Shown: piece by piece, positions 43,660-54,647 of the stretch
Layout of the letters: each line of letters starts with the position of its first letter
How positions within the stretch are numbered: the stretch's first letter is position 1
NCBI GenBank assembly: GCA_038127595.1
Contig: JAYPIC010000001.1
Location: 34,618-98,617 of the forward strand
Direction of reading: 5' to 3'
Length of the DNA: 64,000 nt
Source of the DNA: a bacterium
Lineage (GTDB): Bacteria; Fidelibacterota; Marinisomatia; Marinisomatales; UBA1611
The notes under the pieces: generated by a model
The model's input: the letters and a program-made list of their open reading frames with translations, nothing else
Database searches by the model: none
What the model was told of the DNA's origin: nothing
Made by a program: the position numbers and the translations under genes

Positions 43660-45462
43660 TTATTTAATAAAAAACGTCCTTCTCCTAGTATTTATTTTTT
43701 CTTCAAGTTCGATTATTTTTTCTTTTTCTAACGGCGTCTTTTCTTCTTTAGAGCTCAATTTATCTAATTCTAATCTTAAGAATTGGACATCACGATCAAG
43801 TTTTTCGAGACGTCCTTTCATTTGTTTAGACAACATTTTTTTAAAATCATCAATTTTATCGCTATCTGGAGAATAATAAATATTCGTATTTCCTCGATCA
43901 GTGTCTTCCCAAAATGTTGGGCCACTAAATTTGATTCTATTATATAGTCCTTCCATTAAGTTCAGATAAGTTTGATTGTCAAAATAAGCAAGGTCATCAA
44001 GTACATCTGCAACAATGGTCTCTGCAAAATCAAGGTTTTTAATTTTTATATAATGAAGAGCTAGTCCAATTTGTAATACTCGCACGCCATTATTTACGCT
44101 TTGATCTAGATCATCTTTTGGATAATCTGGAGGATTATCAAGTTGTAAAATTTCTTTTAATAAATGTTCCTGCAGCTCGAGGTCCCAATTTTTTTCAGAA
44201 ATGATGATAGATATCTTTTTTAGTTCAGTAGTTAATACATCTACAATAAAATATAGCGAAGGGTTGTTAGCTGCTTGTTTATAAATTTCATTACTATAGA
44301 ATTTGAAATAGAAGTATCCCATTTTTAGCAAATCAATTTTATTTTTATCAACATAACCTTGCAAAAGAGTTGAATAGTGGAATGCTAAATTGTATAAATT
44401 CCTTGGTTCATTATTTCTGACTGCATGCTTTATTGCAAATCTCATAAATGTATTAAATCTTATATTAATATCCGTAATTAAACTATCTTGTTCGAGTTCT
44501 AAGGCTAAAAGCCCTACTGAGCTAATTTCATTAGCGATAAGAGAAGCTAGTTCATATTCTCCGTTCTCCATTTTTCGTATATATGCATTACCCATCATTT
44601 TAAAAGATTTTACTTCGTAAAATGTTTTTCTATCTTCTATATCTTTATATTGGTGTTCAACATATGTTCTGAAAGTTGGATTATTTCTAATGGTATCTGT
44701 AGCAGTAAAAAATTTTGGATCATAGGAATCCTTGTTCATCATATACACTCTTACTGTATCACCAACCCGTCGAATGATTTCTGTTTGAGCCTCTTTGAAT
44801 GATATATATTCAAGTAGGTCATCGAATTGATCTATAGTAGACATTAATTGATGCTGATAATGTTCAATAACTCTACTATCATTCATTGTAAGTTGTACGG
44901 GCTTTTGCTTTAACCTTTTTATGTCAGCAATATTCAGCGAATAGAGTTTTCTAATTACATTATCTGTTTTTGAATAGAGTAAGATGTAAAATATGTATGG
45001 CAATGATAAAACAGAAGATAGGGGAAGGTAAATGTAAGTATTTAACATGACACTAGATAGCCTATCCATTGGTTCAAAATAGTACATAATTATTGTTGAA
45101 TGAATAGACGCAAGAATTAAAAACCATATGAAGATAAGACTTATCCAATCTCTAACGAACAGGTCCATCAATTTTGGAGTGGATTCTGCTGCTATTGCAA
45201 TGACAATTATCAATGTACCTAAAACTGTAGCTAATACTCCTCCCCATATTTCGGGTGCAAAAGTGAGGTCTACGGCTCCATGAGCTTCTTTGTTAATATC
45301 AAAGAATTGTTCAAGGAATAAAATGACTTGTGGATAAAGCTGATGAAATAAAGAATCGCTTATGAGAATGACTAAAAAAACGATTAGTAAGGAGGCTAGC
45401 GATCTGTTTCTATTTATCAGATTCAATGTATTTGCAAAAAATATTGTAATATTACTGTTCAT
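43660..45462 (-). CDS. Membrane protein with long helical cytoplasmic domain (DUF2254-like)
   Basis: Four N-terminal TM with A....TPKL.DLF..D; rest helical; family call from memory of motifs. Confidence 0.5.
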   Translation of the reverse strand: MNSNITIFFANTLNLINRNRSLASLLIVFLVILISDSLFHQLYPQVILFLEQFFDINKEAHGAVDLTFAPEIWGGVLATVLGTLIIVIAIAAESTPKLMDLFVRDWISLIFIWFLILASIHSTIIMYYFEPMDRLSSVMLNTYIYLPLSSVLSLPYIFYILLYSKTDNVIRKLYSLNIADIKRLKQKPVQLTMNDSRVIEHYQHQLMSTIDQFDDLLEYISFKEAQTEIIRRVGDTVRVYMMNKDSYDPKFFTATDTIRNNPTFRTYVEHQYKDIEDRKTFYEVKSFKMMGNAYIRKMENGEYELASLIANEISSVGLLALELEQDSLITDINIRFNTFMRFAIKHAVRNNEPRNLYNLAFHYSTLLQGYVDKNKIDLLKMGYFYFKFYSNEIYKQAANNPSLYFIVDVLTTELKKISIIISEKNWDLELQEHLLKEILQLDNPPDYPKDDLDQSVNNGVRVLQIGLALHYIKIKNLDFAETIVADVLDDLAYFDNQTYLNLMEGLYNRIKFSGPTFWEDTDRGNTNIYYSPDSDKIDDFKKMLSKQMKGRLEKLDRDVQFLRLELDKLSSKEEKTPLEKEKIIELEEKINTRRRTFFIK

Positions 45463-45558
45463 CCTTATGTAAAGTAGTAAAACATTGTTAATGGAAGCTA
45501 CGATTTTGATATATGTTTTTCAATATTGAAGAAGACTTTCTATCCAGATGTTACTTAA

Positions 45559-45564
45559 TATAAT
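45559..45564 (+). promoter_or_regulatory. Candidate sigma70 -10 box for the structured leader and TerB-like gene
   Basis: Perfect TATAAT about 10 nt before the first paired region; -35 box weak. Confidence 0.4.
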
Positions 45565-45571
45565 ACGTTAT

Positions 45572-45690
45572 AGTGGAATCGGTTTTTATTGCTCTTCACA
45601 TAAACCGATGATAACTTCCTAATAGCTCTATTGAGTTTAGAGGTTCGTAGACTCAATATAGAGTAGTAATAGTAGTTACGAACTTTAAAT
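45572..45690 (+). ncRNA. Candidate structured cis-regulatory RNA (two hairpins, both loops complementary to downstream segments)
   Basis: P1 45578-85/45602-09; P2 45629-39/45648-58; loop1 45586-95 pairs 45660-69; loop2 45640-47 pairs 45679-86; G-U pairs work only on the plus strand. Confidence 0.55.
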
Positions 45691-45715
45691 GTAAATTAAT
45701 TCTAACGAGGTAATT

Positions 45716-46147
45716 ATGTCAGATTGGACAAATAGTCACGACTTAGTATATGCATTTGTTTGTGTTTCTTTTTTAGCAGATGGAGATGTTGATGAGTCTG
45801 AGAAAGAAGCAATGCGTGGTAACGTAAAAGTTATGCTCCCAGATATGGGAGATGATGAGTATCATCAAGTTGAAAAAGAAGTTATTGATAAATTTATTGC
45901 CCTCGGCGATGAAGCTTCTCGTTTTGACCAATATGGTTCTTCACTCAGTGCAATCAAAGAAATGTTTTCTTCTGATGATGATCGTTATAAGGTAATTAAA
46001 AACCTTGCTTACATTGCTAGGGCTGATGAATTTATTCACGAAAATGAAATGAAAATGATTGAGCAAGCAGTTAGCGATTTAGATATGGAAGATAAAGTCA
46101 GTTTGGTTAAAACTGAATCTACCCTTTTTGTAGATTTTAAAGGGTAA
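45716..46147 (+). CDS. TerB-like (tellurite resistance/DjlA N-terminal fold) protein
   Basis: ADGDVDESE and IARADEFIHENE metal-binding motifs; GAGG RBS. Confidence 0.75.
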   Translation: MSDWTNSHDLVYAFVCVSFLADGDVDESEKEAMRGNVKVMLPDMGDDEYHQVEKEVIDKFIALGDEASRFDQYGSSLSAIKEMFSSDDDRYKVIKNLAYIARADEFIHENEMKMIEQAVSDLDMEDKVSLVKTESTLFVDFKG

Positions 46148-46161
46148 TTAAAAAATATATT

Positions 46162-46194
46162 ACGATGCCTGGGTTAATCCCAGGTATCGTTTTT
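46162..46194 (+). terminator. Rho-independent terminator after the TerB-like gene
   Basis: ACGATGCCTGGG-TTAAT-CCCAGGTATCGT followed by TTTT. Confidence 0.8.
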
Positions 46195-46218: not shown

Positions 46219-46374
46219 ATGTCTGAAAAAAGAACACACAGTGACGATAGACGAAATAACGACCGCAGAAATGCCGATCGAAGATTAAGCAATGTAACAG
46301 TTGAAAATGATAGAAGAACTGATGGAGATAGAAGACAAGATGAGCGCCGTTCTGTAAAGGACCGACGCTCATAA
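46219..46374 (+). CDS. 51-aa (D/E)RR-repeat microprotein
   Basis: AGGA RBS at 46207-10; MSEKRTHSDDRRNNDRRNADRRLSNVTVENDRRTDGDRRQDERRSVKDRRS; varied Arg codons suggest protein-level selection. Confidence 0.65.
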   Translation: MSEKRTHSDDRRNNDRRNADRRLSNVTVENDRRTDGDRRQDERRSVKDRRS

Positions 46375-54260: not shown

Positions 54261-54620
54261 TGAGCTAGTTGGATGATTGCTCTATTAAAATTAATTTTTA
54301 ATAGAGAGGAAAGTCCGGGCACCGCAGAACATAGAGCCTTTTAACGAAAGGAATCCGTGAGGATATGGAAAGTGCAGCAGAAAATAAACCGCCTGTTTTC
54401 AGGTAAGGGTGAAAAGGTGGTGTAAGAGACCACCAGTCTTTCTTTAAAGAGATTGAGCTTGTAAACCCCTCTAGGTGCAAGGTCGAATAGTTTCAGAGAT
54501 GTTGTTCGCATTGTTTGATGAATGGGTAGATCGCTTCAGCATAATGGCAACATTATGCGCAGATAAATAATCATCTATCCTCTTTAGAGGTGGACAGGAC
54601 TCGGCTTATAGACTAGCTCA
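54261..54620 (+). ncRNA. rnpB: RNase P RNA (type A)
   Basis: GAGGAAAGTCCGGGC, AGTGCAGCAGAAA, GGGTGAAAAGGTGGTGTAAGAGACCACC, GTAAACCCC, ACAGGACTCGGCTTA; terminal helix TGAGCTAGT/ACTAGCTCA. Confidence 0.97.
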
Positions 54621-54647
54621 AAAATATACGATAACGGAATTATCTAC

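Follow-up and report, generated by a model that had tools for sequence, protein, structure and literature searches.

A conserved H-type pseudoknot upstream of a TerB-like gene in marine Marinimicrobia

What is transcribed from the 253-nt gap (45463-45715) between a minus-strand 600-aa membrane gene and a plus-strand terB-like gene in a marine SAR406 (Marinimicrobia) bacterium, and what might its RNA do? The gap belongs to a stretch of 64,000 nucleotides, here called the window, from a genome of 2.0 Mb, 33% GC and 95.8% completeness. An earlier note, made from the letters of the window, proposed that a TATAAT box at 45559 drives an RNA with a 119-nt double pseudoknot, which would switch between two folds and act as a riboswitch, sRNA or ribozyme. 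As a description of the letters this was accurate. The coordinates and letters of its hairpins P1 and P2, of both loop pairings and of the near-duplicate ATAGCTCT are all correct, and the gap length, the Shine–Dalgarno (SD) sequence GAGGT (45707-11) and the TerB-like nature of the downstream gene were confirmed. The expectation of an undescribed, conserved and pseudoknotted leader RNA was also borne out. The genes and signals that flank the leader are as follows.

43660-45462, minus strand: 600-aa membrane gene with a weak DUF2254 match (E 0.012)
45495-45523, minus strand: candidate divergent promoter TTGAAA-N17-TAGCTT for the membrane gene, read from the sequence
45716-46147, plus strand: gene for a 143-aa TerB-family/DjlA-N-like protein (PF05099, E 8.6e-10)
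46162-46190, plus strand: intrinsic-terminator-like hairpin 3' of the terB-like gene; RNA contigs continue beyond it

Of the 54 genomes of the family, 45 were found to carry the terB-like gene. Its product is acidic and nearest to the DjlA N-terminal/TerB clusters of the Atlas (score 0.94), and a PDB sequence search returned nothing significant. The membrane gene is present in 33 of 34 larger loci, where its usual company is a K+ channel and a cNMP-binding gene, and in most other genera it bears a TerB-like domain of its own. The DUF2254-like protein of the window (43660-45462, minus strand) lacks such a C-terminal domain, which was not seen in genera g1 and g8. The candidate divergent promoter is matched by a loose pattern in 66 of 86 orthologs, a figure without a shuffle control, and one low-depth RNA piece extends to 45526, upstream of the start predicted for it. 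Between the terminator-like hairpin and a convergent CADD-like gene lies a 51-aa ORF rich in D-R-R repeats (46219-46374, plus strand), which is covered by RNA contigs and has matches in six of the 34 larger loci, all of the same genus, at 58-90% identity; its longer 69-aa frame has no Pfam match. The ORF is reminiscent of arginine-repeat motifs in c-di-GMP-binding peptides. A tRNA-SeC found by ARAGORN on contig C46 of the host genome (G000) suggests the use of selenocysteine in this genome.

The first question is where the leader begins. The upstream half of the region contains the following signals.

45589-45594, plus strand: −35 hexamer TTGCTC (TTGACC in most orthologs), formerly read as the P1 loop
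45609-45617, plus strand: extended −10 box TG-A-TAACTT, whose hexamer (45612-17) is set off from the −35 hexamer by a 17-bp spacer
45624 (±2 nt), plus strand: predicted transcription start, placed 7 nt past the −10 box

The ortholog set comprises 156 loci (153 with a gene start, 145 with enough upstream DNA; 88 distinct sequences). The pattern TTG(A/C/T)YY-N17/18-TA(A/C)NTT is present in 144 of the 145 loci with enough upstream DNA, the single miss (L031) being a near match, and its fixed letters are partly there by construction, the pattern having been derived from the same loci that it scores. Shuffled upstream regions contain it in 27 of 4400 cases. Among the distinct orthologs the spacer is 17 bp in 86 of 88 and 18 bp in the other two, and the −10 box sits 93-100 nt before the ATG in 78 of 88; the TGATAA columns are invariant in alignment A1, which comprises 47 rows (40 full-length same-genus leaders and seven g8-like ones) and leaves out 41 of the 88 leaders (six same-genus deletion leaders, two of genus g2 and 33 others). 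A simple consensus promoter scan did not list TTGCTC-N17-TAACTT. Two further comparisons were uninformative, namely the genome-wide hexamer spacing (42 cases at 17 bp, and from 27 to 45 at each of the other spacings) and the upstream regions of tRNA genes, 15 of 29 of which hold a loose promoter pattern, a figure without a control. RNA contigs from four studies (4 of 13 RNA data sets) have 5' ends at 45624, 45629, 45657 and 45661 and leave 45537-45618 without depth; as assembled sequences they are unable to prove a start or a strand, and their agreement with the promoter is a weak hint. Contig L068, be it of RNA or DNA origin, likewise begins at the base equivalent to 45624. The comparative data thus place a predicted sigma-70-type promoter at 45589-94 and 45612-17, from which transcription probably begins near 45624. 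This gives the conserved TerB/K+-channel locus a likely promoter and start site.

This arrangement bears directly on the double-pseudoknot RNA. P1 (45578-45609, plus strand) sits in promoter DNA and was rejected as an RNA helix, and the loop that was to form the first pseudoknot is the −35 column. Covariation, set beforehand as the refuting test, went against both. In A1 the paired cells amount to 59.6% for P1 and to 76.6% and 58.5% for the two parts of the first pseudoknot. On the coding-sequence tree P1 shows four pair-keeping changes, 17 breaks and 19 restorations, while in the first pseudoknot 19 one-sided changes keep a pair, 19 changes break one and 12 restore one; there is no compensatory change in either. 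P1 is broken already in a relative with the same protein (L001/L048). Among 1000 dinucleotide shuffles of the 119-mer, a P1-like 8-bp Watson-Crick hairpin arose in 57 and a 10-bp helix with G-U pairs like the first pseudoknot in 278, so that neither is clearly beyond chance. The TATAAT letters (45559-64) are there, and their place is not conserved, the box being found in only 7 of 86 distinct orthologs. The two exclusive folds required a second partner for AGAGT (45660-64); because P1 and its loop are promoter and the start is probably near 45624, GCTCT (45625-29) is the only transcribed one. The sRNA and ribozyme readings are without support; as for the HDV-like and twister ribozymes, for which two conserved pseudoknots and invariant catalytic bases in one transcript would be expected, the first pseudoknot is unconserved and lies upstream of the start. 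Every helix of the double-pseudoknot model can be drawn in this genome, and P1 retains 7-8 of its eight pairs in 13 of the 88 leaders. Set against the changes on the tree, the −35 column, the rarity of the TATAAT and four RNA runs with no contig over 45537-45618, the model is scarcely credible.

The downstream half fared differently. It is organised as a single H-type pseudoknot.

45625-37 with 45650-55 and 45658-64, plus strand: stem S1, that is P2 extended by GCTCT/AGAGT
45638-45641, plus strand: loop L1, UAGA, both A of which are nearly invariant; relatives have 3-4 nt here
45642-45649, plus strand: 5' strand of stem S2, GGTTCGTA, from covariation and RNAalifold
45665-45676, plus strand: loop L3, 12 nt and purine-rich, with a nearly invariant A at 45674
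45677-45684, plus strand: 3' strand of S2, TACGAACT, from covariation; absent in the leaders with a 19-nt deletion
45685-45715, plus strand: AU-rich spacer and SD, read from the sequence

The hairpin P2 of the earlier note therefore survives as the inner part of a longer stem, and its loop pairing survives in another register, shifted by two bases from 45640-47/45679-86 to 45642-49/45677-84; the pair 45641-45685 of the former register holds in just 5 of 47 alignment rows. In A1, 96.3% of the S2 cells are paired and five of the eight pairs have changed on both sides. For S1 and S2 together, neither the pairing nor the covariation score was equalled in any of 500 shuffles, with slid controls at 30-58%; taken alone, the count of double-changed pairs is unexceptional (133 of 500 shuffles). 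Of the 30 changes that the tree records in S2, 24 keep the pairing (four double, 20 single); in slid controls only 3-10 of 33-35 do so. The two registers of S2 take the top two places among 5111 possible 8-bp helices, and RNAalifold chooses S2 unprompted. S1 cells are paired in 79.6% of cases in A1, and these column counts are understated because the register of S1 slips by 1 nt between subclades. Among the 45 distinct leaders that bear the pseudoknot, 36 have an inner stem of 5-12 contiguous bp, and the other nine have only 3-6 bp that follow one unpaired base.

The energies point the same way. For 45623-45703, one of 1000 dinucleotide shuffles matched the summed energy of the hairpin and loop pairing and none matched the weaker helix, which puts this pair of helices beyond chance. 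The pseudoknot finder used was a custom script with Turner-type stacking values, suitable for ranking only; by summed energy the leader is third among 519 upstream regions of the host genome, and the two above it each have one trivial helix. The top genome-wide score belongs to a 16-bp long-range helix on G000:C59 (plus strand), upstream of position 760. Across three genera (alignment A3, 38 rows) five columns are invariant, all in stems, and three loop adenines are at least 90% conserved, which would fit ordinary pseudoknot triples. Taken together, it is well supported by comparative evidence that the loop of the 5' hairpin (45625-64) can pair with 45677-84 to form an H-type pseudoknot. L2 is 0-1 nt long. 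S1 begins at 45625, directly after the inferred start, from which the leader measures about 92 nt. A 22-nt AU-rich stretch separates S2 from the SD, and the distance from the end of S2 to the ATG is 31 nt here; for the two remaining genera it is 29 and 23 nt.

How widely is this structure distributed? The unbiased finder gave significant results for 38 of 40 full-length same-genus leaders, both g2 leaders, one of seven g8-like leaders and two of 33 other leaders; the top stem of the g8-like leaders is short. An RNA model built on 38 leaders matched in 12 of the 54 family genomes, 11 of the matches being the terB leader and the one elsewhere being weak (E 0.23). The leader of G073, a member of the distant genus g2 that was outside the training set, matched with E 0.0045. 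Outside the family, 151 genomes of the phylum and 121 of the order yielded no match, at 34-43 scored candidates per genome (34-96 when the family genomes are counted as well). In these searches the predicted pseudoknot is confined to three genera of one Marinimicrobia family and to the position before the terB-like gene. These genera fall on two separate branches (g1 with g8, and g2) of a midpoint-rooted single-gene tree, from which we infer that the tree suggests an old feature, lost or decayed elsewhere.

Such losses can be followed in the leaders themselves. Six distinct leaders of one same-genus subclade (L004, L005, L073, L076, L077 and L085) carry a 19-nt deletion that removes the 3' strand of S2 and leaves the hairpin; four of the six are still significant in the finder, through another short pairing, a competitor of the outer stem. 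When 28 loci of other genera were searched without filters, the g2 leader alone matched the model, and RNAalifold gave no consensus structure for 33 other-genus leaders. A 5' fold with z < −1.5 occurs in 21 of these 33, and about half to two-thirds of the other genera retain a 5' hairpin; short pairings of the UUUG/CAAA type were seen there by eye only. The first paired base lies 0-3 nt from the predicted start in 79 of all 88 leaders, a count without a control. Near the hairpin apex of the other-genus leaders (alignment A5, columns 40-47) there is a conserved YRTTTG-like word, offset by about 5 nt from the S2 5' strand of the window genus; it is possibly a relic or a protein site.

The motif is new with respect to Rfam and the searched literature; the supplement of PMC5737381 or unpublished motif sets might list it. 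Rfam 15 at the gathering threshold returned only RNase P and a tRNA for the whole window, leaving the gap without a match, and at E<=10 the gap region, like the orthologs L095 and L026, gave weak unrelated matches only. The RNase P RNA, of bacterial class A, lies at 54261-54624 (plus strand), directly 3' of a 232-aa gene. No second copy was found in the host genome by blastn, nhmmer or the RNA model. A second TerB-domain gene, possibly djlA (G000:C41:11940-12278, minus strand, 257-aa frame), has no model match either. Comparison of the leader with 50,697 phage records gave no blastn match at E<=1, and viral contigs gave no pattern match. No paper combining Marinimicrobia and TerB was found, TerB is not mentioned among the matches listed for RNA motifs, pseudoknots or riboswitch candidates, and the main text of bioRxiv 10.64898/2026.10.21.760802, its cluster data apart, does not mention the element. 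A covariation-supported RNA motif outside Rfam is thereby gained from an abundant uncultured marine phylum.

With the structure established this far, its function has to be considered, and one possibility is a switch at the ribosome-binding site. One candidate, an anti-RBS helix (45672-79/45710-17) present in the minimum-energy fold, was tried and rejected: its columns are 88.6% paired, as are shuffled columns (88.6%), and 315 of 500 shuffles score as high, so there is no covariation. Over 47 leaders the predicted accessibility of the SD and AUG at 37 °C was 0.50 with S2 and 0.48 without it, the corresponding values at 15 °C being 0.41 and 0.40, and a drop of more than 0.15 was seen in two. 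The leader contains no terminator, and no expression platform was found in it, be it an anti-SD helix or a terminator, that would exclude the pseudoknot. These results weigh against the proposal of an orphan riboswitch, in which an ion (K+, Na+ or divalent metal) or small molecule would stabilise the pseudoknot and act by steric or decay control without SD pairing. The H-type pseudoknot is a common aptamer scaffold, the loop adenines are nearly invariant, and the conserved neighbours (a K+ channel, a cNMP-binding protein and a TerB-fused membrane protein) would suit such a sensor. According to PMC10018353, a preQ1 pseudoknot exerts control from up to 10 nt off the SD. The SD is 22 nt away here, no unpaired base is invariant, the sequence of S2 varies freely, and there is neither an Rfam match nor a terminator; nor do the 12 family-genome matches spread over several linked gene families, as would be expected of riboswitches, all but one of them being the leader of this one gene. 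A riboswitch is thus quite unlikely. Its narrower form, an undescribed riboswitch of marine Marinimicrobia that would sense K+, Na+ or a divalent metal with this pseudoknot as aptamer, is slightly more doubtful still; if true, an ion-sensing aptamer would control the TerB-like partner of a potassium-channel locus, sterically or through decay, from 22 nt upstream of the SD. Found before one gene in three genera, and with no switch to go with it, the motif carries modest weight unless it binds a ligand.

A protein could take the place of the ligand. If the pseudoknot were a translational operator, the TerB-like product, a neighbour (e.g., the cNMP-binding protein) or a global factor would bind it and hinder ribosome loading. 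Its near-fixed end 23-31 nt from the ATG and its sole position before one gene are what an autogenous operator would predict, and the UUUG-like word conserved near the hairpin apex in other genera could mark a binding site. On the other hand, the acidity of the product speaks against RNA binding by it, and most genera whose protein is 60-79% identical have lost the pseudoknot or give no support for it. We know of no RNA binders among TerB-family proteins. An operator is considered unlikely, though less so than a riboswitch.

The same losses could mean that S2 is a relic, its pairing under weak selection and without present effect on expression. This is in line with the deleted or decayed pseudoknots of several lineages and with the weak single-sequence support in g8-like leaders (1 of 7). 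The tree, on which S2 keeps its pairing through most of its changes far more often than slid controls do, and the retention of the pseudoknot in distant g2, including the G073 leader, argue otherwise and make a relic distinctly improbable.

We favour, with a rough probability of 0.52, a constitutive leader that stabilises the mRNA and shapes its translation. It is proposed that the sigma-70-type promoter starts the leader of about 92 nt near 45624 and that this leader would fold at once, the loop of its 5'-terminal stem pairing with 45677-84 into one H-type pseudoknot. The fold would be constitutive, with the 5' end and the first 60 nt base-paired. The paired 5' end may slow 5'-end-dependent decay by RNase E/G, and the 22-nt AU-rich stretch may serve as a landing zone for ribosomal protein S1 beside the ribosome footprint. 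The genome encodes RNase E/G and a six-repeat S1. As described in PMC3997798, RNase E and RppH require single-stranded 5' ends, so that 5' structure stabilises mRNA; ribosomal protein S1 was found to unfold an H-type pseudoknot, according to PMC7038950. RNase J gave no match above the cut-off with TIGR00649 in the 95.8% complete genome, and because of this a role in blocking an exonuclease is unsupported. The pseudoknot might then be one lineage's lock on the 5' hairpin, for which other lineages would build a longer irregular stem. The deletion leaders and the 21 of 33 folded other-genus leaders speak for this stabilising leader, since they indicate that S2 is most likely dispensable while the hairpin remains. 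The argument against it is that a plain hairpin would suffice, and the strong selection on S2 in branches as far apart as g1 with g8 and g2 may point to a more specific job; the three nearly invariant loop adenines and a z < −1.5 in just 46 of the 88 leaders also count against it. The leaders with the 19-nt deletion are a ready-made natural control, and together with the decay variants they ease reporter testing.

Comparison with known systems places the leader among several models. With the preQ1-I, SAM-II, SAM-V and guanidine-III riboswitches it shares S1, a short L1, a coaxial S2 and a longer purine-rich L3; unlike them, it has no invariant loop bases, its SD lies outside S2 and its gene is unrelated to their ligands. 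The pseudoknots of E. coli rpsO/S15 and T4 gene 32 are translational operators. Like these, the present pseudoknot is of the H type and precedes the ribosome-binding site of just one gene within its leader, but there is no sequence likeness, it stands 22 nt from the SD and a cognate RNA-binding protein is only hypothetical. The 5' stabilisers of the ompA and papA type in E. coli differ in that the loop is here tied into an 8-bp pseudoknot and the effect on half-life is putative; as in them, a stem lies within 1-2 nt of the predicted 5' end, the sequence varies while the hairpin is commonly kept, and the host has RNase E/G.
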